Positions 5,751 through 57,817 of a stretch of DNA of 64,000 bases are shown here, one piece after another. Source of the stretch: Cyanidioschyzon merolae (taxonomy: Eukaryota); assembly GCA_000091205.1 (NCBI GenBank), contig AP006486.2, one strand, 5' to 3'. Under the pieces are notes generated by a model. The model did not search any database. It saw only the letters and a list, made by a program, of their open reading frames with translations, and was not told where the DNA came from. The number at the start of each line of letters is the position of its first letter. The first letter of the stretch is position 1. Position numbers and translations under genes: made by a program.

Positions 5751-7088
5751 TCTCCAGCTCCGTTGACCGCAATTCAAGGATTTTGATGGCAGCGTTGACG
5801 TTTCGATTTTCGATTGCACGGCATTCGGATGCTGTCGACAAATTCCATGCATAAGCGGAAGTTGCGAGCAACGCATCGATTTTCATGCTCAGCTTCTTCG
5901 TAGACAGCATCGATGCGTCCACTACATCTGTGAAACTTGCCTGTGGCCGGGTGATCGCATATGTGCACCACATCTCGTCCTCTGAACGCTGCCCTGCGGC
6001 ACCTCCAGGCACGCTTCATCGCTTGGTGTACACCCACGAGGTGTACAGTGGGATCCCCTCGATGTCGTGTTCCGTTTCCACGTCAAGTGCCATCCCTGAC
6101 AATCATGGGGTCGTGTGGGCGATGCCCATGGCGAGAGCGCTCTCTCCCGCATACGCATGCCCACACTGTTTTATTCGATAGAGGAGCTGTGGAACGCGAT
6201 CTTACCGATGATGACAAAAGCACCGGACGCATAATCCAGGCTGGAAAGCTAGTGCAGACATTGCGACCAGTCCATGCTCCCATCGTGTAAAACGGTGAAA
6301 AACTCTCCCCGGAAAAATCGCCGCGTTCGCTCATACCCGAGTCCATGATCCTTTCCGATGCAGACAGTAAAAATGTCGGCAGCCTCAGCGAGCATACCCC
6401 ATTGAACATATCATACCGCTGTAGACTGCCGTTGTATCGATAGCCATAAACAGAAGATGAGTTGTCTTACGGATGAAATCGATTATTTCAACGTGACAAG
6501 TTCAGTGAACTTTCGACACGAGCAAGTGAACAAGTCGTCCATACACGATCATGAGTTTTGTTTTCTCCTTCATCTAGCAGCGCAAAATCACAACGCGCAT
6601 CATTTGCCCTGCAACAGCAAGATCGAAAAATTCGAATCATGCGTAACTTGAGCATGCTAGACCGAAGGACAGGAAAACAGGGTATACTTGTACATATGGA
6701 AAGTCTAACGACACCAGTGATATTAAGAATCCTATTCGAAACCGTTGCCCATTATCTTGGTTCTGGTAACGTACCGTATTCCAGCGGCTAAGGATCCAAG
6801 CAGCAACCCCAAATCGACTACCGAGAAACCCACAACTTTCTATGCACCCGTATGCACTAATCACTGGAATTCGAATGTTGATGCTTTCCACTCTGATACA
6901 TCTTCCGCAAAAATCGCAATGCTGGAGCAGAGCGAGCAGCGCGGATTCCCCTGGTAATCCGCGACTAGTCCAGGTCGCTGTGGATCGAGAGCATGCGTCC
7001 CGCGCCATGCCACGATTTTCGCCTGCGATCATGGGGCACATTCACGTCATTACGTCGCTCGTGACGATTCCTGTTGAACCAGTGCCCT

Positions 7089-11362: not shown

Positions 11363-13226
11363 GTCCGCAGTGCCGATGGATAAACCGCTGCAGCACGCTA
11401 ACGATCGCTGCAGATCCGATGCATCGACTGCGAAGAACGCGATGCGTTTGTGTGCGTTTGCGCCCATCGACGACAGTAAGTTGCAATAGACACGTACACA
11501 TCAGCCCCTAAACCTGTGTGACTTTAAAAAGGAACATGAAAATACTAGCTCTGTAACTGCCTTGCGGTTTTTTTTCTGCCTTGATGCACAGCCATAAGAT
11601 TCAACGCACAGCAATGGGAGCTGAAGAATTCAGAGGTTGTTCTGAGGTTCTCGGTCGCATTTTCGGGAGTGGCTCGTTTCACGCCTCGCCGCTGGCATTC
11701 ACGACACCACCGGCATGACGATCTTTCGCGACGTCGTTGAATAACGGTTTGCAAAACAGCCGATATTCTCATATAAATCATAGGTATAAGAGTTCGGTTT
11801 GCATCTTAAATTGCGAGTAGTGTGCTCAAATAATGTATGGTTCAATTTTTCGATGTTTCTGATTCAAGGCAACACACGGTGGGCGGGAATCCGCGCTCCT
11901 GGACTGATGACGAGAAATACTCGATGCCATGACTCGACGACTTGTTCACAGGCTCATGTCGAGGCCAGGCTCAACATGTCACGTCCATGAATCGAATCTG
12001 TTTCAAAGACATAGCCCTCTTGCTTTGCTGCCACCGACGATAGAGCATTCCACAGCAGCACGACGCCATACACTGGAAATGCTCCGGGAGGCCCCTGTCT
12101 CTTGTGTTGACTTGAAAAAGCGTCTTGCACTCGAATTCCCGGCATCACATTGATCAGTTGTAGTGGAGCATGCGTCACCGCTTTGCACGAAGTTAGCGGA
12201 GACGTTTCGAAATTTCTCGACGTGTTCTCCAGCCTGGATTTGCCCTCTGGTAATTGCGGCATCATGGATATGATTGTATTCCACAAATCTTCGATTGAAT
12301 GGAACAGCATGCGCTCGCATATGCAGCAAAACTTGTAGTCGACGTGGACATCGACTCAAAGAAACCCATGGTCATTGAACCTGCACCGCGCTAGGAAACG
12401 GAGCAGAGCAGCTTCGCGAGCCTTCTGTACCCGTCAGCCGTGTATACTGAGCGATTAAACAAGCGCTCGCGTGAAATACAACGGACCTTGAATGAGCATA
12501 TGTGCCGTAGATATCGAAACATCTCACCAAATCCAAGTCATACCGCTGCGAAATGCGCGCCAAGGCTGCATACGAAGCAAACGGAAACGGTACGCGACCC
12601 GTAGATCGCAACATCGGCTTGAGCATACCATGCATCCACAACTGCCGGAAACAGCAGAGCATCGAGACTTTCATATTGCCGTCACCATCGTTCGCATGCA
12701 GGCACCGGTCCTCCCGGGAAATCATAGACTGGTACAGTGGGAGCTGGAACAACCAGCGCGGAAAACGAATCATTCGCAGAGAAACCTCGCAAAGCTGGTG
12801 TCGATGACAACGGCAAGCGATACAGACTTTAGAATATACATCCCAGTTAGCGCACCGGTTCCGTTTTATGCGGATGCGAACGTCGTGTAGACGCCCGAGT
12901 CCTCTTCACACAATCTTCTTCCATTTTCACCTGACACGGGTATAGCAAACTGCGCTGCCTGCACTGGTGCAGGCAAGCGCGTGCCCTCGAACCGGTACCC
13001 CGGAAAAGGCGCTGTGTCCGCCAGCCAGACGGCAATCGGACCCCGATTGACCGCTTCTCAGTCGATGGTGCGCTTGAAAAGCTCGCACCGCGCTCGAGAC
13101 GCGACCTACGAGGATATAACACCTGAAAGGCAAAGTTTGCTTTGGCGGGGAACCGCCCCTGTCCGTCAGACTGTGCCAGCGGGCCCGGATGTCGCCGATG
13201 AACTCCACGGCGTAGTGTAGGTCAAA

Positions 13227-19298: not shown

Positions 19299-22179
19299 TG
19301 TGAACCGAGACTTTTGGTGGCGAGTCGTGAAACCCGCGTTGGGTGCCTTACGTTTCTAGCCGGCGCTTTCCCTTGCATAGCAAAGCCGAATCTGTCTCGA
19401 TGCTCGGCGGAATGCCAGAAATACCCGCTATCTCCCAGCGGATCTACGGGCAGTGGCCGGCGGAAAGTCAGAGGTAGCGCGCGTTGTTTTGGCTGCGTTC
19501 CCTGGTCTACGTCGACGTTCTGCGGGCCAGAAAAAAAGCTTGCGGTGCCGGCACATGACGCCCACATACAACGACAACCCCTCAACCAGAGTCTGGTCAA
19601 TTTCTGGGTTCATTGGCCTTAGACCCGTATCAGATTAAAAAATTGGACACTGAAATACGCGCTCGGTCCGTGACATGAGCTTTGTTCCCGAACTTTACTG
19701 ATTTGCATGGCGTCGACATTCGAACTGCACCAATAAAGCATTATGGATTCATAGGTGTAAGATTCTCGGGCGTGATTTTGGAGTGCATCCCTCGACGCGT
19801 TGCCACTGGCTCTCGCTATGTCACCGAAAGCAGGATGATTTGCGACGCCCTCGAATACGGCTTCGTTCAATAACCAATATCATTGTCCAATGCATGCGTT
19901 CAAGACTCCGCGTGTCTCGATTTCATGTGTATAGCGTGCCCAAATCGCGCGTCCTTCATGACGTGGAACTTTCTGTTTCAAGGCAACGCGTGAGCGCAGT
20001 ACTTTGCGCGACTGCATTGACGGGAGCAACCATTCGATATCGTCCGTAGAGAGCTCGTCGAGAGGTGCGCGCTGAACGTGTATTGAACTCTTCATGCCAA
20101 ATCATCAATGCCCTTTGAACGACAATTCTGTCTCTATGTCGATTGACGAAAGCAATATTCGAGTGCAGCGTGACACCTCTTCTGGGATACGCATCCAGAC
20201 TCCACCGTCGGTTCTGTCTTCATGGGAATCTTCTTGGACGCGGTCTCCAGTGATCGCGGGGATCGATACCAGTGGGGTGCGCGATACCGCTTTGCACAAA
20301 GGGAGCGTGGGCCGGTCGACACCTGTCGATTTGCGATCCAACCTGAATTTTGCTTCCGGTACCTGTTTCTTCATGGATGACATTGCGTTCCGCATATCCT
20401 CTATCGAATGGAGCAGTGTGCGAGCGCGTGTGCTTCATAAAGCGTGCTGGCTGAGGTGATCGCCCAGAAAAGGCCCGTGATTCCAGTATACGACGCCGGG
20501 CGCCGAGTCTGATGACAGCATCGAGGGCATCCCTCTGTGCTCGTCGAGGTCGTGGACCGAGCGCTGAATCAAATGGTCACGCGCCAGAGGACGGCATTTG
20601 GAGGTCAACGAGGCATCGGGGTCGACGTATGGGAGACCCCGAAACTGCTCAGGTGTCATTGGTACGACGGCTGCACCGGGGCTGTTTACAAACAAGATCA
20701 ACATGACAAGTAAAATGCACATCGCAACTTTTACCTACGTACGAAATACGTTGACAACAGCAGCAAGCGGCGAACTCGAGACATTCATACAGCTATCAAC
20801 ATCCTTCGGCTGCTGATGACGGAGGTGCAGGGACAGGAGCGACTCACGTACTCGATCCCGGAGAAGAGCGAGAGCAGAAGCGGAAGCAGTCTCAGAAAAA
20901 GCGCGCACATTCTGGTGAGGATCACAGTGGCAAGGGACCCAGACTTTGGAGAGCAAGCCCAAGTTAGCGAGCAGGGCCATTCTATTTTATTTCGATAGAG
21001 ATGTGTGGAAGGCATCTTGTCCGTACTGGCTGCCTGTCGGACGAGCGCATCTCGTGGAGGCGTGCTGCCTGTCCGTTACCCTGCTGCCGCTACCGATGGA
21101 TAGATGGGTGCTTGGATTCCCATCCAGGCATGCACGTGAGAGGGGAAATGCTTGGCGGCGGTTTCCGCTGCTTTGCAGGTCAACAGACAGTCCTCACATG
21201 TGCCGTGCATACCTCATACGCCGCCGACCAGGTAGAGGCGCTCGCACAGGACGCGCTCAAAGTACGCTTGCGTTTGGCTCCGGGTTTCACCACATGGGAT
21301 ATGGCCGGCAGCTTCGCGCACTGCGACTGCCCCGGCGCCTCATCGAACTCGCTGGGATCCAAAAAGAATCCCTTGGCACCCAGGGAATGGATGATGGGAA
21401 GCGATTCCGCGTCAACACGCTCATCCATGGCTGAAGCACTCGTCGCTTCGACCAGGACTGGGCGCCTCCTTTAGAGTTCTCCTTCACGCAGATCATGATC
21501 TGCCAAGCAACTTTCAAAAGCGTCCAGTGATACGCCTACAGCTGGGCGAAGGAAACCTTTCAGGTCCTGTGTATGCCTCTCGCTTCTAGTTACATTTCCC
21601 GAGTGACGATTCCCAGCGTCGGAATCGCCATGCGCCCCCGGTATCGCCACATGTACGTGCATAGCATCTGGCAACGCAAGCCATGCGTCAGTGCGGCGCC
21701 TAGCCCGAACCCGCGAGTCCTGTGTGTGTGTGGGTGTGTTTGTGCGCGCGCACCGGAACGCCTACCAGCCGCCCCGCTGGATGTCCGTGCGTCATGCCGC
21801 TAACTATATGCATCTACATAAGGTTGCATGCTTCGACGCTGCACGATAAAACGGAGTGCTTGGAATGCATTTTTAGAAACAGAGTGCCTGCGCAGCGATC
21901 GGATTCGAGGCGCTCGGCGTGCTCTGGGTGGAAAGCAAATCATCGACATGTATCGAGCGTTTACGTTGTGTTGATGACCGGGACTTTGGTGCCCCCAGCG
22001 CTGGTTGGAGCGATCCCCCCGCTCTTCTTTAGCGCCTGTTCCAGGACTGTTGCCAAAAATGTCGACGGCGCACCGCATTTCTACACCGTCCGTTAAGATG
22101 GTGGTGGTTGCCGCAGTGCAGCGCTCGGGTACTGCTTTTTTGCGCTACGCAGGCGTGCTAGCCTGGTATCCCAGAAGTA

Positions 22180-22778
22180 AAACAAAAACGTTCAACGACC
22201 ATGGAGGGTAAATACGTATACCCACGCGCATGCGCCTCTGCGCCGTTCGTGACCGGTCCCCTGGCATCTATTTCGGTTTCTAACAGTACACTTCGAGCAG
22301 CAGAGGTTGCTAGATGAAGTTAGATCGCCTCAGCTCCCCTGGTCTCTCGTATTCAGCATCCCACATCGTCTGCTGCTGGGTGACGGCGCTGGTGTCTCAG
22401 TTGACGAGCTCCCTGCGTGCATTGAGGCTGGTGGAGCTCCCCAGCACAAGGAGGCCTCTAATTCGAGCCCTCTGTGGCACTGCAGTAAGGTCATCGTCCC
22501 GTAGCGCAAACGCCCTCTCTCGCCTATTTCCCCCTTCTTCTTCGTCGACACTTGCGCTTTTCCCTCGATGGGTGGAGAAAACAGAATTTTTCGTTTTCTT
22601 TCCCGGCAGCCGGTGATGACAGCCTTCGAGGATCCCCGACGCCCATCTTTGCTCCTTTCCCTTGGATTCTTACTTTTCTTCAAATGAGCGCACGTCGAAC
22701 GCATCCGCTCTAAACTGCGAAAACGAATTTGACGACACGCATCTGGGAGTCGGAGCACGATTGATGAGAAAGACTATA
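22180..22778 (-). mobile_element. MITE-like, internally deleted derivative of the Fanzor/TnpB-like element family (copy M1)
   Basis: Collinear, roughly 70-80% similar over its whole length to the element at 63392-63975. Shares the 5' terminal block (..tcttcaaatga.cgcac...gaacgc.tc...gaaagactat) with the Fanzor copies at 36.2 kb and 37.15 kb. Retains a degenerate stretch homologous to the region encoding the RuvC-III motif. Homology with M2 ends at both boundaries. Confidence 0.55.
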
Positions 22779-23394: not shown

Positions 23395-23880
23395 CGAGCG
23401 ATGTCGCTGGCATCAGCGCTGCGAAGCGATGCGCATGCCTCGCCATTCAAGTTCTGTCCATATGTATACATTCCAGTATACTATGTACATTCTGCAAGTG
23501 TCGCCAGCGCTGGGCATCGCACCAGCGCTGCGAAGCGATGCGCATGCCTCGCCATTCAAGTTCTGTCCATATGTATACATTCCAGCATACGTATGTACAT
23601 TCTGCAAGTGTCGCTAGCGCTGGGCATCGCACCAGCGCTGCGAAGCGATGCGCATGCCTCGCCATTCAAGTTCTGTCCATATGTATACATTCCAGTATAC
23701 TATGTACATTCTGCAAGTGTCGCCAGCGCTGGGCATCGCACCAGCGCTGCGAAGCGATGCGCATGCCTCGCCATTCAAGTTCTGTCCATATGTATACATT
23801 CCAGTATACCTATGTACATTCTGCAAGTGTCGCTAGCGCTGGACATCGCACCAGCGCTGCGAAGCGATGCGCACATGAAG
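23395..23880. repeat. Minisatellite, about 110-bp unit x about 4.4, immediately upstream of the fumarase gene
   Basis: Unit gcatcgcaccagcgctgcgaagcgatgcgcatgcctcgccattcaagttctgtccatatgtatacattccag.ata..tatgtacattctgcaagtgtcgc.agcgctgg recurs at about 23405, 23513, 23623 and 23732, with a partial unit at 23843. Confidence 0.85.
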
Positions 23881-29510: not shown

Positions 29511-29849
29511 GCCCGCACGCTTGGTTTTCTTGACTCGTGCTACCGGAGTCTGTGGGCTTTGTTTTCGACACCAGCGCGCGTCCTAGTCGCACCTCGAGCC
29601 GTGCGCTCGCTCACTCAACGTTGATTGGGCGCTTGAAGCTACGAGCAGTGCGCTCAACGGAAAAGCGTCGCGTAACCACGAAACCCGCTGGGCGCTCCCT
29701 CTTCCATAGCTCTTTCGAGCGCTTCTGCTACGGTCTTCAACTAGCACAACACGAACCAGGGTTGTCGTGCGCGACACAACCGCAGCAGCAAACGGTTTGA
29801 AGCACCTCTGCCGAATAGCGTATGGCGCCACCTGGTGCGGGTAAACCTC

Positions 29850-30492
29850 GAATCGCTCGTCGCCTGATGCGAGATGCTGCATTTGGGGCGCTGCTGTGAT
29901 CGTGCATCCTGCAGTGCACCTATAGCGGATATGGTACAGTGCACGATGGTGTATCCGTATTGGAGGATTCGAATTGCTCGTCGCCTGATGCGAGATGCTG
30001 CATTTAGGGCGCTGCTGTGATCGTGCATCCTGCAGTGCACCTATAACGGATATGGTGCAGTGCACGATGGTGTATCCGTATTGGAGGATTCGAATTGCTC
30101 GTCGCCTGATGCGAGATGCTGCATTTAGGGCGCTGCTGTGATCGTGCATCCTGCAGTGCACCTATAACGGATATGGTGCAGTGCACGATGGTGTATCCGT
30201 ATTGGAGGATTCGAATCGCTCGTCGCCTGATGCGAGATGCTGCATTTAGGGCGCTGCTGTGATCGTGCATCCTGCAGTGCACCTATAACGGATATGGTGC
30301 AGTGCACGATGGTGTATCCGTATTGGAGGATTCGAATTGCTCGTCGCCTGATGCGAGATGCTGCATTTGGGGCGCTGCTGTGATCGTGCATCCTGCAGTG
30401 CATCTATAGCGGATATGGTGCAGTGCACGATGGTGTATCCGTATTGGAGGATTCGAATCGTTCGTCGCCTGATGCGAGATGCTGCATTTAGG
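29850..30492. repeat. Satellite-like tandem array, 121-bp unit x about 5.3
   Basis: Units start at 29850, 29971, 30092, 30213, 30334 and 30455, about 95% identical. Unit: gaat.gctcgtcgcctgatgcgagatgctgcattt.gggcgctgctgtgatcgtgcatcctgcagtgcacctata.cggatatggt.cagtgcacgatggtgtatccgtattggaggattc. Confidence 0.9.
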
Positions 30493-31439
30493 ACACAGGG
30501 AAACCTGGAGAGAGCGCCCGATGATCGCTTGCCTGGATGACGATAACAGGCATCAGAGCGTACTCGTGTTCAGGCCCTGGGATGCTGAAGGCGCCTCGGT
30601 GCAGTTGACGAGGCCGCCAACTCGCTCAAGACTAATGATTATTGCTGAAGCAGTATGCGACCTGCGGGCTCAAATCATTCACAAGGTCAACTGCATACTA
30701 CTCACGGATAGCAGCACACAACACCACAGTGTTTGACGAGCACGCCAGGCAATGCTCCACAGAAGCGCTCGAGAACGCATGATCTGCAGCGAACAGATCC
30801 TTCGAGTTGACATCGAGGACATGAAACACGAAGTTCTGCGCGCCTCAATGAAAAGCAAGCTTGTCGCCCGAGCGAAAACCTCTGGACGCGTGTCATCGAT
30901 TCCACCGGTGCACTGTATCGCACACACGGCCACGAGTCGCGCGCTGCCTGGCGTACATACAGGCAGCGTAATGACCGGTGATCGCAGAGCTCCTTGCGGG
31001 CAACGCGGCTAACCTCCGCATCATCTAGCGTCGCCGCGCGTATCACCACGGGCACCCGGGATCGTCGCGTAGAGCGCTACTGGAGCACCTGCTCATGCTA
31101 AAGCCGGGTGCGTTCTCGAGCGCAATCCAAGCTACAGAGCCGCATCTGCGCGTTTGTCCTGCATATGCGACAACTGGCACCGCACGCCTCGGGTACAGCG
31201 TCGTCCAAAATGCTTCTGCCCACGCCACCAATCCCGTGGTGCGTGCTGTAAACTACAAGTGAGGCCTAGTGCAGGCAGCGCGCCATGTACAGCTCTGCGT
31301 TTCTTGTTGATCGCGGAAACGTTGATTTCGACCAGAGATCCTCAAGTGGGCCATGAATACCTGCATCACAGAGATTGACTATCGGTATACGATTTGCCTC
31401 CGTGTTTCGAGAGCAACGGTAACTTCTTACCTTACAGGG

Positions 31440-31985
31440 TGTTCTAGATATCCGATCCAGGATCACCATCAACACGTCCACTGAAGGGATCGTCATTCAT
31501 CTCACAGCATACTCTAGATACCGTACGCAGGATCACCATCAACACGTCCACTGATGGGATCGTCATTCATCTCACAGCATACTCTAGATATCCGATCCAG
31601 GATCACCATCAACACGTCCACTGTAGGGATTGTCATTCATCTCACAGCATACTCTAGATACCGTACGCAGGATCACCATCAACACGTCCACTGTAGGGAT
31701 TGTCATTCATCTCACAGCATACTCTAGATACCGTACGCAGGATCACCATCAACACGTCCACTGATGGGATCGTCATTCATCTCACAGCATACTCTAGATA
31801 TCCGATCCAGGATCACCATCAACACGTCCACTGTAGGGATTGTCATTCATCTCACAGCATGCTCTAGATACCGTACGCAGGATCACCATCAACACGTCCA
31901 CTGTAGGGATCGTCATTCATCTCACAGCATGCTCTAGATATCGTACGCAGAATCACCATCAACACGTCCACTGATGGGATCGTAT
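31440..31985. repeat. Tandem array, 70-bp unit x about 7.8, upstream of Rab11, with two interspersed unit variants
   Basis: tctagata recurs every 70 bp (31443, 31513, 31583 ... 31933). Variants are tccgatccag versus ccgtacgcag, and ctgatgggatcgtc versus ctgtagggattgtc. Confidence 0.9.
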
Positions 31986-32132
31986 CGAGCCAGCACGCGA
32001 GGCGATCGCGCATTCGACGCCACGCGGCTGGGCGGGCGGGCGCCAACGCCAACGCCAGCCGACGACTAGTCTTCTGGTGCACCGGTTGCGCTGTTTAGAA
32101 ACGCAGGGCGCTCGACGGGCTAGCTCCACACA

Positions 32133-33689: not shown

Positions 33690-33846
33690 TCAAGCGCACG
33701 GAGGTCTTTTCGCGGTTGCAGCTCCCAAGCAAGCTCTGAAAATATGGTTCCGTTCAAAAAAAGATTCCCTGATACTTTACAAGTTTGTATATGTGTTAGA
33801 AAGCTGCAAGCGAAGATACCGGTCTCGAGCAACACGATGTTCGAAA

Positions 33847-34000
33847 GTCGAACGTCGCCACCGGTGTACAGTAGTGGCGACCGGCGCCCTAGACAAGAAG
33901 TCGCTAACGGATGTGCAGACATCTCCCAGCCGCTTTGGACCGGCCACCTTCTACTGGTTCCAACTTTTTCTCGTATAGTTCCACTTTGAGAGGTTGTCCG
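33847..34000 (-). ncRNA. Candidate omega-RNA (reRNA) scaffold region at the 3' end of Fanzor copy 1. This is a prediction and its extent is unknown.
   Basis: In TnpB/Fanzor systems the guide RNA scaffold overlaps the 3' end of the ORF and ends at the element's right end. Here a perfect 8-bp stem (gtcgccac/gtggcgac, 33853-33880) lies about 10 bp inside the point where copy 1 and copy 2 stop being homologous. Confidence 0.25.
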
Positions 34001-36124
34001 ATAAAGTTCTCTCTTGTCGGCTCTGGAGGTCTTTTCTCTAGCACCGTACATTTCCTTATATTGATGGCGGCATTAAAGTCTCGGTTCACAAACTCCATCC
34101 GTTTCTTCCATCATTGCTTGTTCTAACCAGCGCAGGTAGTCCACGAACTTTCGTCCTCCTTTCCATTTGCTCCTCCTTCAGCGGTCCGCACTTTGCTATA
34201 TGTTCAGGGGTCCGTTGGCACTTTTCTTTCTCGACCATCTGAAGTGTACAACCCAGTTCATGGTGTGTATAGGACGTTCGAAACTCATCTATCGGTATCG
34301 TAACGAAGCGGCTTGTGCACTCCTTGTACGTTCTTGTTGACGGAGCTGTTGTACTCCCTTTCTTCGACGCCCAGCGTCCTGCCCCATACGCTACCAGGAG
34401 CCTCTGACTTCCATCCTCCTTCAAGGCGTTCAACCGGTTGAAAAAATTCGCAACCGCCCGCTGTTTTCCACAATACAAATTCATTCGCAAACGAGCCCAC
34501 CGGGGCTTGGTATACTCCGCCCACAGTGCATCCCCATGGGCAACACGAACATCCATGAATTTCCGAAAAGGTTCAAAGTCCGCTCCTCGGCTCGTCGCCT
34601 CGCTCAAAGCTTCCAGGTGATCCTTCATTTCTGCATTCCACGGACCAATTTTCTTTCTTGCATTCACTATACCGGATTCTCGATAGTATCTCGCTCTGGC
34701 GAGCCTCAAAAGACGCATGTCTGTCTGGCGTAAGTTGCAATCAGTACCATCATCCGCACGCTTGGGAGCAGCGATGGTTATGATATTTGTGTTTCTAGGA
34801 TCCCCGCCAACGACAAAGTCGTTATCCTGCACCTCCTGCATCGTAGGACCCGCCTCCTTCTCATCTTCATCCTTCGTCACGGGTGCAGCCGAGGACGGAA
34901 CTGAACAATCCGCGTTCAAGCGCCGATTGTGTGCACACAGGGCTACCCCATCGGTTTTGATCATCCCAGTAAATACCTTTTGCTTGCTCACTTTGAGACA
35001 TTTGAAATCGAAGATGTTCTTCCAGTACGTCTTCCGGTTTTCACCGGAGAACTCCTCCCTGCTAACATCGAACTCCGGACAGATCTCCTTCATGATGCCG
35101 TAAAGGATTCTGGAGTCGATAGTCACAAAATGTGACTTGATCTTGCCCAACGGAACCACGTCGAAGCGCTTCCCTACTAGGAAAGCCTTCCGTCTCTCCC
35201 ACTCTTCATTTTTCCCGTTCAGCTTCATCTCTGCCTTGCGTTCGAGTTCTCGGTCCAGAAACACGAAATAGCACAGAATGAGGCGATCGTATCTTTCCTG
35301 ATCTTTGCTCAACTCTGATACCTTGTCTGTTGGATTCGGTAGCCCCAGTACCGCACGATGCTCTTGTATAACCGCACGGATCGCAGAAGCTTCATTCGTG
35401 GTCTCGTTTGACGCCTTCTTGTCGACAAATTCTACCTCATCTTCACGCTTGCGATCTTTCATGATGCCATTGATAATCGTCCATTTTCCATTGCGAGAGA
35501 TGCCCGGGTAGAGTGCAAACACGGTGCGTATCATGAAACGTTCGAGGTTCCCTGTCTCATGGTTCTTCAGATTCGTGAGGTACTTCATCGCCCCATAGCT
35601 GTAGATATCTCGGTCACCCTTGTTTCGAGTATCTTTGAAGCTGTAAAAGGGATGTCTTTCGTGTAGGGCATGTACTTGCTCATTTTTCCCTCCGTGTTTG
35701 CCCTGAACCAAGCATCAGGTGACGAACGAAGGTCTTGTCGAAGATCTCGTCTGGAATCTCGACTGTTTTGATGGCCGCCACGTCGCGATACATCTCCCTC
35801 GCCAGATGCATCAGTCCTGACAACGCCTTGACGATACTCTTAGAGTACGAGTCGAAAAGGTTGTGGATGGCCTCTTGAAACATTTGCTTGTAGAGATCCT
35901 TGATGTAATTAAGAAGACAGGCTTTCACCACCATCTCGTTGTACAGTCGTCTTTCTTGCCGCCTTCGACGTGGGGCCTTCCCTCTTTCGGTTCTTCTTCT
36001 CCTCCTTTTCTTCTGGACACGGCACTGTTTTTTGTTTTTGTTTTCCAGCAGCCGGCGACCCTGGGCCTCCAGGATCGTCGACTCAGTTTTTCATAACTTT
36101 CCATTTTTTTGGTTTTTTTGAAAA
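33904..36124 (-). pseudogene. Fanzor/TnpB-like nuclease pseudogene: RuvC-I, TS-x-x-C zinc-finger region and RuvC-III are present, and at least 3 frameshifts are needed to join the ORF pieces.
   Basis: ORF pieces 35925-36305 (K/R/E-rich NLS-like N-terminus), 35680-35934, 34086-35711 (541 aa) and 33904-34098. RuvC-I-like VVGGDPRNTNIITIA; IDEFRTSYTHHELGC plus CQRTPEHIAKC (TS-Cys zinc-finger position); and MEFVNRDFNAAINIRK, the canonical TnpB/Fanzor RuvC-III motif. Comparison with copy 2 locates 1-nt indels in an A5 run near 35700 and at ggaagaaacgg near 34100. Confidence 0.7.
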
Positions 36125-37245
36125 AAGCACTCTGTGAACGCTTCTCCAATATACTACGAAAAAAACACTTGACTAGACTTGTTTGAGTTTTGAAACATAA
36201 ATGAACTGAAAAACTATACTTTGCTACGTCCTGAACGGAAATCCGACTTTTCCAGCTGAATAACACGCTACTGATCAAAATCGCGTTTCCCTTCAACAAC
36301 GGCACCGTGCGCGTCGTGTCTCATGCCTGCCAGATCTCCCAGGTGCGCTCACTATGCGTCGATTCGTTTTCCGATGTCAACACCTTGCCATAGAACATAG
36401 AATCCAGATTGCGGGATGGATACTGAAATAAATGAGAGCGCTCATTATTCTTCGCTCCACCTTCAAGTTCCATTACTTATACTTCCTCTGGGATCTACTG
36501 GTCGTTTCGTATATTCTATCGTGCACCGAGTGCCTGCCTCGCTGCACCTGCAATAGCGCCCGTATCGTTGGAGCAGCTGCATCACCGAGACAGAAGAGCT
36601 TTGCCATACCACTGAGGGCGTCGGATCGAGGAATACTTCTCCTCACACGGACTCGGAGTGCATAATCACTCTGGTAACCAGCATGCTGTGCTTAAAGGCC
36701 TACTGCCTGTGGCAGCGCGGAGCGATGTACTAGGAGCCACTGCGACCAGCGCAACGCCCAGAAGCAGCGTACCCGCTCCTAGTCCCAGGATAAACTGCGT
36801 TGCGGACGGACTGCTCAGATCGGACCAAAGCACCTGCCACTGGGAGGAGCATGAAGCACGAGGCTAGCTGTCTCGTACGACTCATGGGACCTTCCACCAA
36901 GAAGGTAAACCTTCGGCAATATGGAAAGCTTTCCCCTTTTAACGTTTCTCGTAGAGGGGTAACGAAATTGTTATCTCATTACTGCGTGGTCGCTCGTTGC
37001 TGTTCTTTTTCCTAGAGCGCAGTCTGTTAGCACACCTGGGAGATCTGGCGGGCGTGAGACACGACTTGCAACTCGCAGTTGAAGCGAAACACGATCCTGA
37101 TCATTTGTAGACTTGTTACTGTGACTGGCAAGTTGTATTTGCATGAAAGTCGTAGCAAAGTATAGTCTTTCAGTTCTATCATGTCTCAACCACCAAGTAA
37201 CTGTATTCAAGTGATATTTCGCGGTTTATAGCGGAAGCGTTAATC

Positions 37246-39469
37246 GTGAACTCGTTTGCAAAAATAAATAAAGTTATGGAAATGAAAGTAGAGGATCCTG
37301 GAGGGCCTGTGCCGCCGCGTGCCGAGAAAAATACGGAAAACAGTGCCGTCCATGAGGAACAGGTGAAGACGGTGAAGCAAAAGGGGGCGAACCGACACCA
37401 GAACCTGCACGAAAGACGACAGTACGACGAATTGGTAGTGAAAGCCTGTCTTCTTGAACGTAACGCGGATCCCGTGAAGCAAAAGTTCTGAGATGCCATC
37501 AGAAACCCTACTGCATCTCACTCCTTGAGTGTTTGTAACGCATCTTCAGCACCAATTCATCTGACGAAGGAGATGTACCATGACGTGACGGACATCAAAA
37601 AAGTCGAGGCTCCGGAAGAATTGTCCAACGTGACCTTCCTTCGCCACGAGATGCTTGACACATGGGAAACAACGAGGAGAAATGAGCGAGTGCATGCACT
37701 CTACGAAAATTATGCAGAGTGCCGCTCCAACGGCACTCGATATAGGGGTGACTCAAATGTTCACAATTACGTGGCGATGAAGTACCTCTCGAATCTGAAG
37801 AACAAAACGACCATGAACCTGAAACGCTTCATGATACGCTCCATCTTTGCGCTCTACCCTGGGCTGTCTCGAAAAAAAAGGATATGGGCCATCATGATTG
37901 GCATCACGAACGATCGTCGGGATGCACAGGAGATCGAATTCGTGAACAAGAGGACATCACACAGGAGAAGGAAGACGCTTCTTTGATCCGTGCGGCGATT
38001 CATAAGCACCGCGTGGTTTTGGGGCTTGTCAACCCAACAGAAAAGGTTTCAGATATGAAAAAAGATGTTTTTCCCGCATCCTGCGCTAGTTCGTGTTCCT
38101 GAAGCGTGAACTCGGACGCAAGGCCGAAAAGGAGCTGAATGGGGGAAAAATGGAGAGTTGTTGGAACGGAAAGCTTTCGTACTGGGGGAACGCTTCAATG
38201 TCGTTTCGTTTTGCAACATCTAGTCAATGTTTGTTACATTCGACTTCAGAGTCCTTCATGGCATCATGAGGGAGATCAGTCCAGGGTTCGATGTGAGGAA
38301 GATACGGTTCATCGGCGAGAAACCGGGAGACATACCAGAAGAACATCTTCGATTTGAGACATCTCAAAACGAGCAAGAAAAAGTATTAACGGAGATGATC
38401 GAAACCGATGGAGTAGCCGTATTCGTACACTATAGTCGCTTGAAGGCAGATCGTCCTGTTCCGTCTTCGCTATCGCACTTGGCGAAACGTGAAGAAAACA
38501 AGGATGCGGATCCTGCGACACAGAAAGTGCAGGATAACGACTTTGTCGTTGGCGCGAACCCCGGAAACACGAATATCGTAACCATCGCTGTGCCCAGGCG
38601 TGCGGAAGATGGTACTGACGGCAACTTACGCCAGAAAGACATGTGTCTTTTGAGGCTCGCCAGAGCGAGATACTATCGAGAATCCGGTATAGTGAATGCA
38701 AGAAAGAAAATTGGTACGTGGAATGCAGAAATGAAGGATCACCTGGAAGCTTTGAGCGAGGCGACGAGCCGAGGAGCGGACTTTGAACCTTTTCGGAAAT
38801 TCATGGATGTTCGTGTTGCCCATGGGGATGCACTGTGGGCGGAGTATACCAAGCCCCGGTAGGCTCGTTTGCGAATGAATTTGTATTGTGGAAAACAGCG
38901 GGCGGTTGCGAATTTTTTCAATCGGTTGAACGCCTTGAAGGAGAATGAAAGTCAAAGGCTGGTAGTGGCATACTGAGCAGGGCGATGGAAGACCCGAAAA
39001 GGGTGTACGCCAGCTCCAATGACAAGAGCGTACAAGGAGTGCACGACGTTTCGTTACAATGCCTGTCGATGAGTTTCGAACATCGTATGCACACCATGAA
39101 CTGGGATGTACACTTCAGAAGGTCGAGATGGAAAAGTGCTAGCGGAGCCCTGAACATATAGCAAAGTGCGGACCGCTGACGGAGGAGCAAATAGAAAGGA
39201 GAGCGAAAGTTCGTGGACTACCTGCGCTGGTTAGAACAAGCAATGATGGCAAGAAACGGATGGAGTTTGTGAACCGAGACTTTAATGCCGCCATCAATAT
39301 AAGGAAATATACCGTGCTGGAGACGAGACCTCCAGAGCCGACAAGAGAGAACTTTATTGGACAACCTCTCAAAGTGGTACTATACGAGAAGAAGTTGGAA
39401 GCAGTAGTGGGTGGCCGGTCCAAAAAGACTGCGAGGCGCCTGCACATCAGTTGGCGTCTTCTTGTCTAG
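37246..39469 (+). pseudogene. Fanzor/TnpB-like nuclease pseudogene (copy 2), broken by several frameshifts and in-frame stops. The RuvC-I Asp is replaced (GANPGN).
   Basis: ORF pieces 37246-37491 (MEMKVEDPGGP.., NLS-like), 37525-37986, 37884-38102, 38227-38862 (..DNDFVVGANPGNTNIVTIA..) and 39260-39469 (MEFVNRDFNAAINIRKYTVLETRPPEPT..). There is a TAG where copy 1 has TGG at about 38862. Confidence 0.7.
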
Positions 39470-39522
39470 GGCGCCGGTCCCCGTTACTGTACACCGGTGG
39501 CGACGTTCGACTTTAGAACAGC
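39370..39522 (+). ncRNA. Candidate omega-RNA scaffold region at the 3' end of Fanzor copy 2 (prediction)
   Basis: Position homologous to the copy-1 3' terminus. The stem seen in copy 1 carries 3 mismatches here (gtccccgt versus gtggcgac), consistent with decay. Confidence 0.2.
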
Positions 39523-39563
39523 GTTGATGGCGCCGCTCTGAAAATTCGCGTACCTCCGCGAGG

Positions 39564-42332: not shown

Positions 42333-43931
42333 AAATAGAGTCTCCCAAGGTATCCTAGCAAACACGCAAAAAGTACACGATCGTGCGCGCTCTTCAGTAA
42401 CAAAACGCTCCAGCCAATAGGGGAGGCAGCGCAGCGCCCTGCGCCATCCGCCGTCAGCCGTCGACGCGATGCGCGCAGCATTGCTGCACTGCCCGGAAAG
42501 CGCGGCTTCGTATAGCTGGTGCTCTTCCGGAGACTGGGACGCAGAGCGGCACCTACATCGCAGTCGTATAACAGAAGCAACATCAGCAGAAGCACACGAG
42601 GGGAGTACGTTTGATTCGGTATAGCTGGAGGCAGCGTTCAACGACGGTTGCGTACGAGCGACCTGCGTTACGCTAGGGCGCTTTTTCTCGCGTGAACGAC
42701 CGGAAGCGGTTGGTACCAGGAGTGCCAGCACCGAAGCCTCTTGTGGTGTGACTGCTACCCAGAAAGCGTCCCGCTGGTGGCGGGCTCGGTTCAGCGAGCG
42801 CGTGAGTTCGCATCTTCGTGCGTACGACGACAGGCACGTAGAGACGCCAGCGTAACGGGTGTAGTGCGCGCCTCCGCCGGGTAACGCTCTTTACCATAAG
42901 GTCGCTGCTTCCAGAAAAGTGTGGTAACATTCGACTGGCGGTTTCACGAACGTGTCATAGTGACAACTGGAACAGCGTACCACCGGTAAGCATGGGTGGT
43001 ACACCGCGCTACCCGTACCCACGCGACGTCTGGTCGCCAGCTGGCGGCTGGTGGCCGCATCCTCGCGCTTGGCGTAGGAACACTGCAGTGGCAGCGTTCG
43101 GCCTCGTTCTTGTTCTGACGCCGATCTTCATCTACTCTGAGCGGATCTCCGAACGGCCTGAGGACGCCGCACGCCAGATCCCTTGGCGGCCGTGGGTCAA
43201 GGTGCGGGCAAACTCCATGACGTCAGAAACTGAACCCGGGCAGCACTGAGGGCCTTGCTGCAGCATGCGGCGGTGCGTCGAGAGCATCAGCGCTTGTGGA
43301 TGGAGCTTGTGCTTCCAAGTCGATCAAGGAGCGGTCACGCAAGCGACGATATAAACCAGAGATTCCGACGCGGTGAGATTCTTCTCTGAACGGAACGGAC
43401 AGGAAAGAATGGCATTTAAGGGTTCTATGCGGAGCGACGCGGACATCTGACCTGTGTTGCATGCGCGGCGCTCCGTGTATCTGTTTCCATATGAGTGCTG
43501 TTATGCGCTGTGGCGAGCAGTGCCAGCGGCAGCGTCTGGTACCAGTATCGCCGCTAACAACGAGCACACTACACTGCACACGCAGTGCAGCCGACAAGCT
43601 CCAGGACGGCAGGTACCAGCGACACACTTGGAGCAACGGGCAGGTTGCGCTTGTCCGATCGTATCCGTTGAGATGGATGCGCATGCTTGTTCCCGCTATC
43701 GAAAATGCAACGGTTGTGTGTCACTTTCGTGAACCGAGTTCGTCTGCGCCAGTCTTTATCGCGTATCTTGTTGCGCCCGAGAAAGATACCGTAAAAACAC
43801 GAGAAACACACCAAGGGTCCCGCATCACCATAAACGTTGAAGCTCGCGAAAACGTGCTGCCCTGGTATCCCAAACCGCGCAAACGTCAGCCAGCGCCGTC
43901 CGCTCCCGCGACCGTAGAATGCATCGCTGGT

Positions 43932-44139
43932 GAACGTACAACTCACCTCAGGCCCTTTTATCACTCAGAGAACAACATGACGAAGTATGACTGTGCTAGT
44001 GTCCCGAAAGATGCACCGCTGGCGACCATAAACCGCACCTCAGGCCCTTTTATCACTCAGAGAACAACATGACGAAGTATGACTGCGGTGGTGTCCCACC
44101 AGATGCACCGCTGGCGAACGTACAACTCACCTCAGATCC
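43932..44139. repeat. Tandem duplication, 92-bp unit x about 2.3
   Basis: gaacgtacaactcacctcaggcccttttatcactcagagaacaacatgacgaagtatgactg..gatgcaccgctggc is repeated at 43932 and 44024, with a partial unit at 44116. Confidence 0.85.
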
Positions 44140-44239
44140 TTCCACCGAACTATAGACAACAACACCCTAGACGTCAAAGCTGCCGTCAGCGACTGCAGCC
44201 GCAGGATGAGCGCGTGAACATCCCAGCTCCTCCAACGTC

Positions 44240-50329: not shown

Positions 50330-50625
50330 TTGGTGCGTTCAACCAGCGGCACTGCATATAAGGAGTTCATCAACGAAGACTTTTCACACCACGATCGATA
50401 CCAAGCGACGGGTGTGGTGCTGGAGACGAGAAACCCGAGGAGCTGACGCGATCCAGCCCAGTCGGACAGCCGCTCACGGTCGACTTGTACAACGACAAGT
50501 TGGAATCAGTACCAAGGGGCCGGTCAAAAAAAGTCGCGAAGCACCTGCACGTCGGTCTCTCTACATACACGCTACGGTCGGAATGCACTTTGGTGCTGCA
50601 TCGGTGGCGGCATTCGTACCGCATA
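50330..50625 (+). mobile_element. Solo 3'-terminal fragment of a Fanzor-like element (degenerate RuvC-III coding remnant plus 3' end)
   Basis: ttcatcaacgaagacttttcacaccacgatcgataccaag..gtgctggagacgagaaacccgaggagctgac..cacctgcacgtc..catcggtggcggcattcg is collinear with the copy-2 sequence ttgtgaaccgagactttaatgccgccatcaatataagg..gtgctggagacgagacctccagagccgac..gcctgcacatc..caccggtggcgacgttcg. The motif is degraded to FINEDFSHHDRYQ. Confidence 0.45.
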
Positions 50626-50707: not shown

Positions 50708-52774
50708 GTGTCAGACGACACCCATGTCACCATAAAACGGAACGGGTGCTCTAACTCGAGCGTACACTTTAAAGTCTGGGTCTTCTCTGGGGCTGCTTCT
50801 TTTCCGTGCGCTTATTTCCGGCTTTACCGAACAAGTACGACTTCGCCTCTGCTTCCAGCTTCCGGTGCTCCTCTGACGACTGTACTCCTCTGCGCCTCGA
50901 CTGTCGCATACCGGCTACGTTGCATCGATATGAAAATTGTCACTATACCTCGACCGTTGCATACCCCGTGGGCTCTACTTTCGCATCGCGCAAACGCTTG
51001 CGTCGGTGCTATCCCTGAACTCGGCCTGCGCGAAAGCGGCGTACGAGCGTGGTGGTCAGGGTATGAGCGCCCCGCGATTCCTCATCGTTATCTGCAGCAT
51101 CAGGCCTTTTGTGGGTATGTATGTATGTTCGTCGCCAGCGAAAGCTTCGTGAAAACTGGAACCTCGAGGAGTTCAAGCGCCTGCTCCAGAGGTTTCCAGC
51201 GCACAACGAGCAGGGCTCGTCGTTGTTTCGTGTTCTCTCTGGCTCGTGGCGCAGACAACGCTACGCCCGGGTACGCAAGCAGAACACCGCGGCTTCTAGA
51301 CTGCCAGCTCAGTCGACGCACGCTGCTGCAGCTTCTCGGCTGCGGGTTACTGGCGGTGAGCGCGTCCCCTGCAGCAAGCGCTCCGTACGAGAAATCAAAA
51401 GTCCAGGCACAAGCGGTGCTTGGAGAACCCCAAGGGAAGCAGAGTTGGGCAACGCGCCTCGCACCCTACTCGTCTGACACAATCTATCGGCTGGCAACGA
51501 GCGGTGAACACGCTTCAGTGCTTGCGGTTGATGAAGAAGCTTGTTTGGATGCGCTTGCGAGAAGCGCGGACCTGGTGCTCGTTGGAGACCATCCGCGCTC
51601 CCAAACGGACCACGCGATGGAAGCCCGAATCGTCGCTGCGTTGGCACTTCGCGTCGCACCCAACCAAGACTACAGCCAAGAGAGGAGCTCGCTCGCTGTC
51701 GCATCGGACGCTTTCGAACAAGCGCACCAGAGTCACTTGGACGATTTCATCCAAGGCCGTATTCAAGAGGAGGAGCTTTACGAGCGAACGAAATGGGATG
51801 AACGATGTATGTGGCCCTACGAGCGCTATCTGAACCTTCTTCGAACGTGTCGATCTCTGGGTGTCAACCTCGTGGCGCTCAGTATGCAGAATACGCATCG
51901 TAAGGCGCTTGAAAAGCAGGGACTGCGATACCTCCAGGAGAATCATGCCGTGCGACGTTTGTACTTCCCTGAACGCGAAGGCATCTGCGATGAGCTAGTG
52001 CAGTACGCATCATCGCCGGCATACAGACTCTTCGCTTCTCAAGTACTGGAGCCGTTCTTCATGACCATGCGTCGGTACGGATCCACGGATCCCGATGTTT
52101 CGTTCGCGAGCTTCTCCGAGGCCGCGCTTGTGCAGGACGCCGCGATGGCGGCAGTGCTACGTCGCTGGATGACCAAGCGTAAGCGCCATCCGAGAGCGAC
52201 AGCGTCCCGTTGCCGTCTGCTGGCCTGCTGTGAGTTGCCGCATGTCGCTTTCGGCCAGGGTATTCGCGGCATGCTGGAATGGTGGCAAAAACTCGACAAT
52301 GAGAAGCAACGCGCACAGCATGGCACAGCAGGCGCAACTGTGGATGCTGCGCGCCCCGCGACACTGCTTGGCGCTGATCCAACCGATTCCGTCATTCCAG
52401 AGGAAGGACCGACAGAGCCCATGTTATCCATTCAGACGCTTGTGCTGAATCCAACAGTGGTTGATGTCGGAAGCAGAACCGTGCCGGGTACGGAACGTCG
52501 TGATCTATTCTCTGGAAGGCGCATACGTCGCTTGCGTTTAGAGCTGCCCAGAAACATGATGGAGGAGAGTCCACTGCTGGTATCCCCAAAACGTGCGTTC
52601 AACGGAATCCTCGATGCTGAACCGAAGGAGCTCCACGCAAGCGCAGCGCAAACTAGCGCACCAAATGGAGATGCAAGTATAGGCTCGTCGGAAAGCCCCG
52701 TTTCCACTGCACCACTGGTAATCGGGGATTATCTCTGGATCAGTGCTTCGAAGAAAGGACGCATTCAGGTGTGA
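50708..52774 (+). CDS. Hypothetical protein; the N-terminal roughly 200 codons are of doubtful coding status
   Basis: 688-codon ORF. The middle section (..LVGDHPRSQTDHAMEARIVAALAL...WPYERYLNLLRTCRSLGVNLVALSM..) is non-repetitive with protein-like composition. There is a vague, unverified resemblance to ChaN/Tiki-superfamily (DUF399) proteins. Confidence 0.35.
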   Translation: MSDDTHVTIKRNGCSNSSVHFKVWVFSGAASFPCAYFRLYRTSTTSPLLPASGAPLTTVLLCASTVAYRLRCIDMKIVTIPRPLHTPWALLSHRANACVGAIPELGLRESGVRAWWSGYERPAIPHRYLQHQAFCGYVCMFVASESFVKTGTSRSSSACSRGFQRTTSRARRCFVFSLARGADNATPGYASRTPRLLDCQLSRRTLLQLLGCGLLAVSASPAASAPYEKSKVQAQAVLGEPQGKQSWATRLAPYSSDTIYRLATSGEHASVLAVDEEACLDALARSADLVLVGDHPRSQTDHAMEARIVAALALRVAPNQDYSQERSSLAVASDAFEQAHQSHLDDFIQGRIQEEELYERTKWDERCMWPYERYLNLLRTCRSLGVNLVALSMQNTHRKALEKQGLRYLQENHAVRRLYFPEREGICDELVQYASSPAYRLFASQVLEPFFMTMRRYGSTDPDVSFASFSEAALVQDAAMAAVLRRWMTKRKRHPRATASRCRLLACCELPHVAFGQGIRGMLEWWQKLDNEKQRAQHGTAGATVDAARPATLLGADPTDSVIPEEGPTEPMLSIQTLVLNPTVVDVGSRTVPGTERRDLFSGRRIRRLRLELPRNMMEESPLLVSPKRAFNGILDAEPKELHASAAQTSAPNGDASIGSSESPVSTAPLVIGDYLWISASKKGRIQV

Positions 52775-55769: not shown

Positions 55770-57817
55770 AATGAATAGTAGCGCCTACTCCTAAACATTA
55801 ATAAACGTAAAACAGAACACCGACTGTTCCAGTGGTCAACAGCGAGGCATCCCGTTGGGTTGCGTATGGCCGGTTTCGGAAGAGTGCTAGCAAGAACGCC
55901 TTGAAAGAATGGAATGATATACCCATATGAGAACAAACCTAACTAAATCCGTACAATGGCGTGTCCATTGAAATCCGGGGCGCTTCCGACGATCACCAGC
56001 ACCAGCCTTGTGGGATTTTTCTGCGACTGCTTTCTTTACTCCTTCTCTCTTTGGCTTTACATATGCCGATCATCCCTTTTTCTCCAGCTTCGTTGTCAAC
56101 AGTCGAAGGATGTTGGCAGCGCCTCTCATGTCTGGACCTCGATGCTTCTGGCTGTTCTTGACGCATTTCATGCACGAGCGGAAGTTGCGATCTCTGTTTC
56201 ACTTGCTATTGTCATCTTCTTCGTAGACATTCAGGGTGCGCGGTTCACCACAGGACCAGTTCGGTATGATCAGGTCTTCTCATACAACCACTAAACCTCC
56301 TCCTATGAGAGCCGCTCTGTGCCGCGTGAGCACTTGCTTCCTTGATCAGCAGATGCCCTCGACGGGTTCAGAGCGCTCGTCTTGATTTCCTCGCATCCGA
56401 TTCCGCCCGCCGTTGCCGTATCCTGCAACCAATGGCCTCTTCTGGCTGGTCCCGTCGGCGAGTACGCTGTATGAAGCACACGCGCTCGCACACTGTTTCA
56501 TTCGACAGAGGATTTGCGGAAAGCGAAGTTCCCAATGACGGAACAAGTCCCGGAAGTCGAGTTAGGGCTGGAGAACGAGTCGAGAAATTTCGATCCGTAT
56601 TCGCTCCCTTTCTACAAAGCGATGCGCACGCTCCACTGGGAGCGACCCTTGCACGACTCAAGTCCGTGTCCAAGACCCATTTGCATGGAAGCAGATGAGA
56701 CAGAGGCTTCATGGGGTGTATCCCATTCGATTTGTCCTACTGCTTTGGAATGCAATTTCGTCGATGGCCGTAAAGAGCAGAGGATTTTTCTTTGGAACGA
56801 AATCTATTATTTGACGTGAAGAGTGCTTTCAACGTTCGGCATGCGCTTGCGAACAAGCCATCTGGAATCGACGTCAGGTTTGCTCCTCGTCGACACAGCA
56901 GCGAGAATTGCAGCACCCACGAGTTGTCTTGAAACAGAAGATTCGAAGACTTGAGGCATGCGTGAATCCCGCATGCTACACGTGCTGACAGCAGAAGCGT
57001 TGCTGCGTGAACCCATGAATTGGATATGGATATTGGATCTTTCACAAATCGTTTTTCGGTTGCGTCGCGAATCACCTCGATGACGGTGACGGAACGAATT
57101 GCAGTGGCAAAGCGTCGAAGAATGCGCTTCGAAACGACAACCGAGAACCTTAACACTACGCAAGGATCAATAAGCCCTGATCGCTGCACTTGGAATGTCG
57201 AGGTTGAACATCGAAACAAAAGTTCGGAGAAAAATCAAAAGGCAAGAACAGAGCAAGCATATCAGGCTTTCTTTTCAATCATGCATCAGTGGAGTCTGGG
57301 TACAACGCAGTCTCCTGCGCTAAAACGCTACCTGGTGAGTCACCCGCGAGTCTCGTGCAAAGCTCTGGTGCGCAGTATCGTGTGCAAAGAGGGTGTTCGG
57401 TAGCTCTTAGCGTGCGTACGGCATCGAGCGTGGGAAGAGCTGCCAGTGCTTCAAAAAATGGATATACAGCTGCACCCGTAACGCGCATTCGGTTCCGTTT
57501 ACCGTACTGGACGGAAAGCGTTCGTAAGCGGTTGCTGCGGGCCGGTCAGAGATGCCTCCCGAGGTGCCTCTGCCCATATCATGTTGCTGCGTTCGAGCAG
57601 AGCAGGTTTCGGGCCTCGACACCGCATCGTTCCAATGTTGGGCAGTGCGAAAGGCATGCTGTTGTACGCAATCTGGATTTGCTTGCTCACTGATGATGCT
57701 GGTTAGCTTCGCTGACGCTGCGTCCCTACACGTAAACGTTCTCCATTCGATGGGAGCAAGTTCCCAGACTGCAGCCACCAGGGATCGACCGAGTATTATG
57801 CCAACGGCAGTATATGC

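Follow-up and report, generated by a model that had tools for sequence, protein, structure and literature searches.

Our analysis suggests that positions 33847-34000 are the 3' part of a decayed Fanzor1 element, and that the tail shared by its family probably serves as the omega-RNA scaffold in members that are still active. The positions lie in a 64,000-nucleotide stretch of DNA (the window) that contains two homologous segments of about 2.5 kb, inverted and head-to-head. The two copies are 78.6% identical over their ~2.5 kb; identity rises to 87-91% in the 1.2 kb nearest the 3' end and is about 70% over the 5' portion. The final ~37 codons of copy 1 fall in the flagged interval, together with the proximal two thirds of the non-coding tail that follows (Table 1).

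An intact ORF is absent from both window copies, each of which is interrupted by frameshifts and stops. Copy 1 has frameshifts near 35683-35687 and at 34104-34107, the latter a 1-nt deletion directly before RuvC-III, and a premature TAG at 33904-33906. The terminal hairpins of the two copies are degraded as well, with z scores of -0.17 and -0.81, and SL2 of copy 2 retains 13 of its 18 pairs. Given the frameshifts, stops and degraded hairpins in both, we found no sign that the window copies still function; both are pseudogenes whose hairpins have eroded, and most likely inert relics of the family. Apparently intact ORFs are present at other loci (L003, L015, L039, L044, L049, L071 and L080), and hairpins examined beside such ORFs are strong, with z scores of -6.8 in L039, -6.6 in L003 and -3.0 in L015.

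A more distant, degraded copy survives in the window as a solo 3' fragment. It retains the CATCGGTGGCGGCATTCG block at 50599-50616, bearing out an earlier reading of the window, made from the letters alone, that the terminal block recurs near 50600; SL1, linker and SL2 are not recognisable in this fragment (50413-50616). Two short pieces at 63788-63950 and 22675-22750 are 70-78% identical to the core 5' region (36114-36161 and 37202-37340) and are probably remnants of further copies; one of them extends towards the window edge.

Table 1. Positions of the Fanzor1-like elements and their parts in the window.
Feature	Position	Strand	Remarks
Copy 1, whole element	33824-36366	-	
Copy 1, span homologous to copy 2	33834-36352	-	
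Copy 1, covariance-model match to right-end unit	33824-33931	-	77 bits
Copy 1, SL2 (terminal hairpin)	33824-33866	-	outer 3' arm degraded
Copy 1, linker	33867-33875	-	ACTACTGTA; most strongly conserved non-coding segment in the family (identity of 90% or more per column, 42 copies)
Copy 1, SL1	33876-33888	-	short GC-rich stem-loop GGCGCCGGTCGCC directly 3' of the stop codon
Copy 1, normal stop codon position of the family	33889-33891	-	TAG
Copy 1, Fanzor1-like coding remnant	33889-35934	-	GGDPRNTN, IDEFRTS and NRDFNAAINI motifs in translation
Copy 1, RuvC-III motif	34060-34086	-	NRDFNAAIN; frame differs from upstream ORF
Copy 1, 5' limit	36352-36366	-	family core start CATCGCGCTCGGT/GAGCGCACC; joins directly onto copy 2 at its left end, zero spacer
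Copy 2, whole element	36363-39532	+	
Copy 2, span homologous to copy 1	37026-39524	+	
Copy 2, 5' module U	36363-37025	+	also in L031, L068, L067, L008, L013, L048 and others
Copy 2, core and Fanzor1-like pseudogene	37026-39469	+	many frameshifts, in-frame stop
Copy 2, family stop codon	39467-39469	+	
Copy 2, scaffold-like tail	39470-39532	+	SL1 39470-39482, linker 39483-39491, SL2 39492-39532
Solo degraded 3' fragment, more distant copy	50413-50616	+	46% amino-acid identity, last 47 codons

A metagenome collection was scanned with the C-terminal 166 residues, which returned at least 310 related stretches. Eighty loci were fetched, and 55 distinct right ends were left after re-assemblies of the same locus had been dropped. 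The family is multicopy, and the genome represented by the window is eukaryotic. The sequence-only reading had taken an abrupt loss of homology between the two window copies to mark the right end of the element. The sequences it quoted are present, and the loss is real, with the pairwise alignment halting at 33834 in copy 1 and 39524 in copy 2. It is also more than a chance of two copies, as the tail is common to all 55 distinct loci and divergence begins within a few bases of the same boundary, identifying the flagged region as the right end of the element. A conserved non-coding region lies between the 3' end of the ORF and this right end in the family alignment.

The exact position of the end is another matter. 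It had been placed at ...GAACA (33838 in copy 1, 39520 in copy 2), a point that falls within the 3' arm of the conserved terminal hairpin. Family conservation continues past ...GAACA, through a consensus ...CGTCGTTCGACTTTCGAACGGCGTT GATGGTG, and then collapses, so that the 30 nt beyond the model-defined end carry at most 0.3 bit per position. Family termini read ...GGTG or ...GGGG. For copy 2 the covariance model sets the right end at 39532, 8 nt outside the pairwise end, and its GCGTTGATGGCG (39521-39532), for which the family consensus is GGCGTTGATGGTG, still belongs to the element. The scaffold/guide junction drawn from the two copies was thus 8 nt or more too far in, and the supposed guide of copy 2 is hairpin. 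For copy 1, alignment to the family fails past about 33834 and the covariance model extends to 33824, so the final ~10 nt of this copy have been lost or scrambled.

After the family stop codon the tail has a fixed order: a short GC stem-loop (SL1), a near-invariant linker ACUACUGUA and a 41-nt terminal hairpin (SL2) whose 3' arm finishes at the element end. One family example of SL1 is GGCGGG-UUU-CUCGCC. Its outer four pairs are almost invariant while the inner pairs vary among G.U, A-U, G-C and C-G, and support for SL1 comes mainly from conservation. The commonest SL2, CACCGUUGGCGUCGUUCG-ACUUU-CGAACGGCGUUGAUGGUG, has 18 pairs (five G.U) in 41 nt; other subfamilies have hairpins of similar size and different sequence, such as CCACUGGCAGCAACGUUUUUC-UUUU-GAAAGACGUUUGUUUCCAGGGG, CACGCC.../...GGUGUG and CUGAUAGCG.../...CGCUAGCAG. 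In copy 1, the inner helix of SL2 (33849-33857 with 33835-33843) is intact but for one C.A mismatch. In L039, an intact copy, the tail forms an 8-nt leader, SL1 of 22 nt, the linker and SL2 of 41 nt up to the element end, and the structured part of the family tail amounts to only about 76 nt past the stop codon.

The terminal hairpin is conserved in the family, strand-specific and rich in G.U pairs, and its two arms co-vary. Across 45 distinct copies, the mean minimum free energy of the terminal 46 nt is -17.3 kcal/mol in the sense strand, compared with -11.9 when the antisense strand is folded and -10.2 for the next 46 nt, which are flank. Against dinucleotide shuffles the mean z score is -2.46, with 56% of copies below -2. 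In 39 of 44 copies the fold is more stable in the sense than in the antisense strand (Wilcoxon p = 9e-8, for copies that are not independent of one another). Pairs counted in 36 hairpins comprise 331 G-C, 182 A-U and 125 G.U, with A.C single mismatches found only 6 times. Such an excess of G.U over A.C points to RNA, with pairing in the sense strand and wobble permitted.

A covariance model trained on 11 copies gave 62 matches in 56 sources. It also recovered both window copies, copy 2 scoring 72 bits with its end at 39532. In the alignment guided by this model, 82.7% of cells are paired, versus 75.4% after shuffling and 36-52% when partners are slid. Double changes occur in 20 of 24 pairs (12.2 in shuffles, 8-11 with slid partners), and the covariation score of 0.194, compared with 0.112 when shuffled, was reached by none of 500 shuffles. 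Because such an alignment is already fitted to the structure, we also ran an alignment-free swap test on all 45 copies, in which the split point was chosen by sequence alone. A copy's own 5' and 3' halves fold at -18.5 kcal/mol, against -15.2 (sd 0.5) for swapped halves, with none of 5000 permutations reaching the observed value.

Column-based methods gave little on a plain MAFFT alignment: RNAalifold returned just a 3-bp stem from 42 right ends, and fixed-register pair counts showed covariation no greater than in shuffles. These methods fail because registers are shifted between subfamilies, so the evidence for covariation consists of the model-fitted alignment and the swap and energy tests, on copies that are related rather than independent. 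The earlier remark that covariation support is missing is accurate for the two window copies and does not extend to the family, in which the swap test and the model-guided alignment both detect it.

The stem that had been proposed as the terminal hairpin is a different one. In copy 1, GTCGCCAC...GTGGCGAC pairs 33873-33880 with 33854-33861 (- strand), and this 8-bp stem does form there and dominates the predicted fold. As a terminal hairpin it has no family support: when it was tried as the family hairpin, 53% of positions were paired across 42 copies, the same as in shuffles, with no excess of compensatory changes. The 8-bp stem is a coincidence peculiar to this one copy, in which it is a competitor of the conserved stems.

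The scaffold had also been suggested to be 100-200 nt long. Within the last 15 codons, GCGUCU/AGACG and AGACG/CGUCU are two further stems that can form in about 80% of copies; they show no covariation, and codon-position conservation over the last 45 codons has no periodicity, a result that is neutral on RNA constraint inside the ORF. With neither covariation in the ORF stems nor codon periodicity, an extension of 100-200 nt into the ORF is unsupported, and the structured segment is the ~76 nt after the stop. The idea of a candidate omega-RNA scaffold at this place thus survives in altered form: the family tail has a conserved, strand-specific fold resembling that of SpuFz1, and the stem, junction and length first assigned to it were wrong. 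A search of the window against Rfam gave nothing at gathering score, and at a permissive E-value threshold the only match near the flagged region was at chance level (E 2.1).

The protein points to the same family of nucleases. A single reconstructed protein has 74 relatives, mainly from JGI metagenomes and tagged DUF8286, and returned zero matches against a local Pfam copy and PDB sequences. A family profile was then built from 17 of the relatives. Compared with PDB sequences, it matched SpuFz1 (8GKH) with an E value of 1.3e-7 over 370 positions and GtFz1 with an E value of 0.009; only the profile, not the single protein, reached SpuFz1. An AlphaFold model of one relative (P0003, pLDDT 67) was searched against the PDB with Foldseek, and its best seven matches are all Fanzor1 structures (SpuFz, PpFz and GtFz, E 1e-10 to 2e-6), with Cas12 variants ranking after them. 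The RuvC motifs GxDPG, (V/I)DEFRTS and NRDxNAAxNI are conserved in 17-26 family proteins, as a split D...E...D in the TnpB order, and copy 1 in the window has all of them, RuvC-III being out of frame. On the strength of the profile match to SpuFz1 and GtFz1 and of the top structural matches of the P0003 model, we assign the elements to the Fanzor1 family, in agreement with the first impression that they are of Fanzor type.

An acidic repeat of ~25 residues (…QKVQDNDLVVDAxKHEE…) occurs in variable number directly before RuvC-I in some family proteins (P0001, P0007 and P0012, alignment columns 500-600). The DNA encoding it consists of 77-80-nt tandem units, as at L009 2373-2528.

SpuFz1 of Spizellomyces punctatus (8GKH) is the closest solved protein to the family by both profile and fold, and its 75-nt omega-RNA scaffold has been defined by small-RNA sequencing and cryo-EM (PMC10432273). 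Folded here from the published sequence (PMC10432273), it begins with a leader of 7 nt, continues with SL1 (21 nt), a linker of 6 nt and SL2 (41 nt), and is followed by the guide. An SL1 of ~7 bp is common to all three solved Fz1 omega-RNAs, and SpuFz1 and PpFz1 have a single further stem before the guide (PMC11423790); a pseudoknot is absent from the SpuFz1 omega-RNA (PMC10432273). The family tail has the same layout of leader, short SL1, short linker and 41-nt SL2, which terminates at the scaffold/guide junction in SpuFz1 and at the element end here, so the comparison with published Fanzor omega-RNA structures favours a scaffold. The elements are also alike in having a single ORF in 2-3 kb and many copies, most of them partial.

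The differences from SpuFz1 are substantial. The proteins are ~14% identical in structural alignment, the scaffold sequences have no detectable similarity, and the linker is 9 nt here rather than 6. The 30-nt terminal inverted repeats and the conserved left-flank dinucleotide of the SpuFz1 element were not found here, whereas the present family has modular 5' regions of four types, and its host seems to be a red alga, that of SpuFz1 being a chytrid fungus. The relatedness of the proteins, the position of the tail and its architecture nevertheless agree with SpuFz1, despite the dissimilar RNA sequences and the blank Rfam search.

By analogy with SpuFz1, the tail of an active member would be transcribed onward into the neighbouring DNA and would be held by the Fanzor protein as its omega-RNA scaffold. 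The first ~15-20 nt past the hairpin would then act as the guide, bringing the RuvC nuclease to DNA that matches it beside a TAM. For copy 2, the guide position would begin at 39533 (CCGCTCTGAAAATTCGCG...), not at 39521. The defining properties of a Fanzor omega-RNA (fRNA) are an RNA that reaches ~14-21 nt into the flank, binding of that RNA by the protein, and TAM-dependent DNA cleavage.

The omega-RNAs of bacterial IS200/IS605 TnpB elements such as ISDra2 offer a second comparison. There too the 3' end of the element is the source of the guide RNA and the flank supplies the guide (presumptively so in the present family), and a right-end hairpin lies within the scaffold. The bacterial scaffold, however, overlaps the ORF extensively and has a pseudoknot, neither of which is evident here, and the present elements differ further in their eukaryotic host and in that no TnpA was seen with them.

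The left side of the elements is more varied than the right. The one core start is joined to no fewer than four 5' modules (U, V, W and X) that are unrelated to one another, and the modules run past the fetched flanks. With the left end undefined in this way and four 5' modules on one core, no TAM can be derived; U-type left flanks show just a loose GC(G/C)YT before GAT. An inverted copy of the right end (a terminal inverted repeat) was not found in the window, where the first ~30 nt of the U-type left end (~36363 in copy 2) resemble the right-end hairpin weakly and mostly in direct orientation. V-type copies carry at their left a complete right-end unit (SL1, linker and SL2) without an ORF, in direct orientation, which scores 83.6 bits in L007 (229-329). 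The unit lies ~14 nt upstream of the V module at four independent loci (L007 229-329, L081 1-69 and the starts of L036 and L064). In form it is similar to either a direct terminal repeat or the 'ghost' omega-RNA loci of S. punctatus, and a search for solo 'ghost' scaffold units returned the V-type left units only.

Several composite arrangements were seen among the loci. The head-to-head layout of the window pair, a core-only copy and a U-type copy meeting at their left ends without spacer, recurs at L009 313-3587 with ~70-82% identity and a different outer flank, which may mean that the whole pair, bounded by a right end on each side, was copied together. Foldback derivatives consist of two 3' halves (from about residue 350) placed head to head, and span the first ~1.6 kb of each of L030/L032, L050, L057, L061/L083 and L035. 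At L042 648-806, the final 48 nt are tandemly duplicated (…GGCGTTT CC GCCACTACTG…GGCGTTT). A reverse-transcriptase ORF (RVT_1), lying on the opposite strand, borders the W module in L003 (742-2638) and in the upstream regions of L053, L071 and L044, which places some Fanzor copies next to or inside a retroelement.

These arrangements bear on the strongest alternative, in which the terminal hairpin is mainly a DNA-level signal by which a transposase provided in trans would recognise where the transposon ends, with its likeness to an omega-RNA secondary or coincidental. Subterminal hairpins of IS200/IS605 elements and the 3' hairpin of Helitron-type rolling-circle elements are parallels for such a signal. 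Consistent with it are the complete right-end-like unit to the left of V-type copies (L007, L081), the weakly hairpin-like U-type left end, also in direct orientation, and the joining of a single 3' end to at least four 5' modules, as in Helitron families. The tandem duplication of the last 48 nt in L042, and the foldback derivatives and recurrent head-to-head pair with right ends at both outer edges, point in the same direction.

The properties of the hairpin itself argue for RNA. Its 20% of G.U pairs and the advantage of about 5 kcal/mol of the sense over the antisense strand fit RNA better than DNA, although a hairpin in top-strand DNA is possible despite both. It runs up to the very last base of the element, without the 10-12 nt spacer or CTRR terminus of Helitrons, and an unsystematic look through the loci showed no ORF for an HUH or other transposase. 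The order and sizes of SL1, linker and SL2 are those of the SpuFz1 omega-RNA. The two roles are moreover compatible, since the right-end hairpin of IS200/IS605 belongs to the omega-RNA. The G.U bias and the SpuFz1-like layout favour a role in RNA, and a mainly DNA-level function is in our judgement unlikely.

Fanzor1 proteins carried by Helitron and Helitron2 elements in Chlamydomonas (PMC10288648, PMC10530073) resemble the present family in their shared 3' end with a hairpin, variable 5' parts and Fanzor1 cargo. They differ in that the Helitron hairpin is subterminal by 10-12 nt and followed by CTRR, whereas the hairpin here is terminal, and no Rep/helicase was seen; a Helitron Rep is absent from the called genes of L001-L003. 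A comparison with Replitrons was considered and is not applicable.

A second alternative treats the hairpin as an ordinary 3'-UTR element of the Fanzor mRNA, acting in termination, 3'-end formation or stability with no guide involved. Its place directly past the stop codon, in the sense strand and strand-specific, would suit such a function. An untranslated-region element would not be expected to fall precisely on the boundary of the mobile element, as this one does in dozens of copies, to match the layout of the SpuFz1 scaffold, or to be kept as an ORF-less solo unit to the left of V-type copies, and Fanzor and TnpB relatives take their guides from exactly this position, the 3' end running into the flank (PMC10432273, PMC10530073). 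We regard this explanation as improbable. That the homology loss merely marks the edges of a local inverted segmental duplication, as the adjacent, inverted, head-to-head copies might suggest, is rejected by the family data, in which 55 independent loci with unrelated flanks share one end point among at least 310 related stretches, and we give it almost no credence.

If the tail is a working omega-RNA, as we consider probable for active members, it would represent a second, independently evolved minimal two-stem Fanzor1 scaffold, in a red-algal lineage. Dozens of natural variants show which pairs can be changed, which would be useful for engineering short guide scaffolds. We know of no account of how Fanzor elements that lack a transposase spread, and the modular 5' ends, solo units and palindromic composites could help explain it. 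For the window itself the significance is modest, as it holds two dead copies and one fragment.

A bolder extension, which we consider doubtful, is that live members persist in an uncultured cyanidiophyte-like red alga with a working 76-nt omega-RNA, or that the right-end unit doubles as a transposition signal. Live members would offer a compact, SpuFz1-like editor from an unusual host, and resemblance to cyanidiophytes allows a guess that the host habitat is thermo-acidophilic. A dual signal would mean that the mobile unit is anything between two right-end units, whether these lie in direct orientation (V-type copies) or inverted (the recurrent pair and the foldbacks), and would amount to a mechanism, not yet described, by which Fanzor elements move and acquire 5' modules.

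The surroundings of the elements are eukaryotic and intron-poor, with 56% GC and long uninterrupted ORFs. Genes in the window include PP2A-A, Maf1, Mut7-C, VHL and Arf. The PP2A-A subunit (7089-8999, - strand) has its best named relatives in red algae, being 47-48% identical to those of Porphyridium and Galdieria, and is 79% identical to an NCBI/JGI protein. The host is accordingly taken to be, in all likelihood, a cyanidiophyte-like red alga that is uncultured. Close relatives of the Fanzor protein are almost exclusively JGI metagenome sequences.

Other repeats are present in the window. Tandem arrays, some of them within long ORFs, occupy 29727-30613, 31291-32053, 23397-23873, 43912-44187 and 5518-5742, with periods of 121, 70, about 110/219, 92 and 118 nt. 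Further dispersed repeats of 71-81% identity occur in direct and inverted orientation (20288-20837 with 56075-56621, 5827-5906 with 56150-56229, and 12823-12870 with 50731-50778), and this repeat family is unrelated to the Fanzor element.
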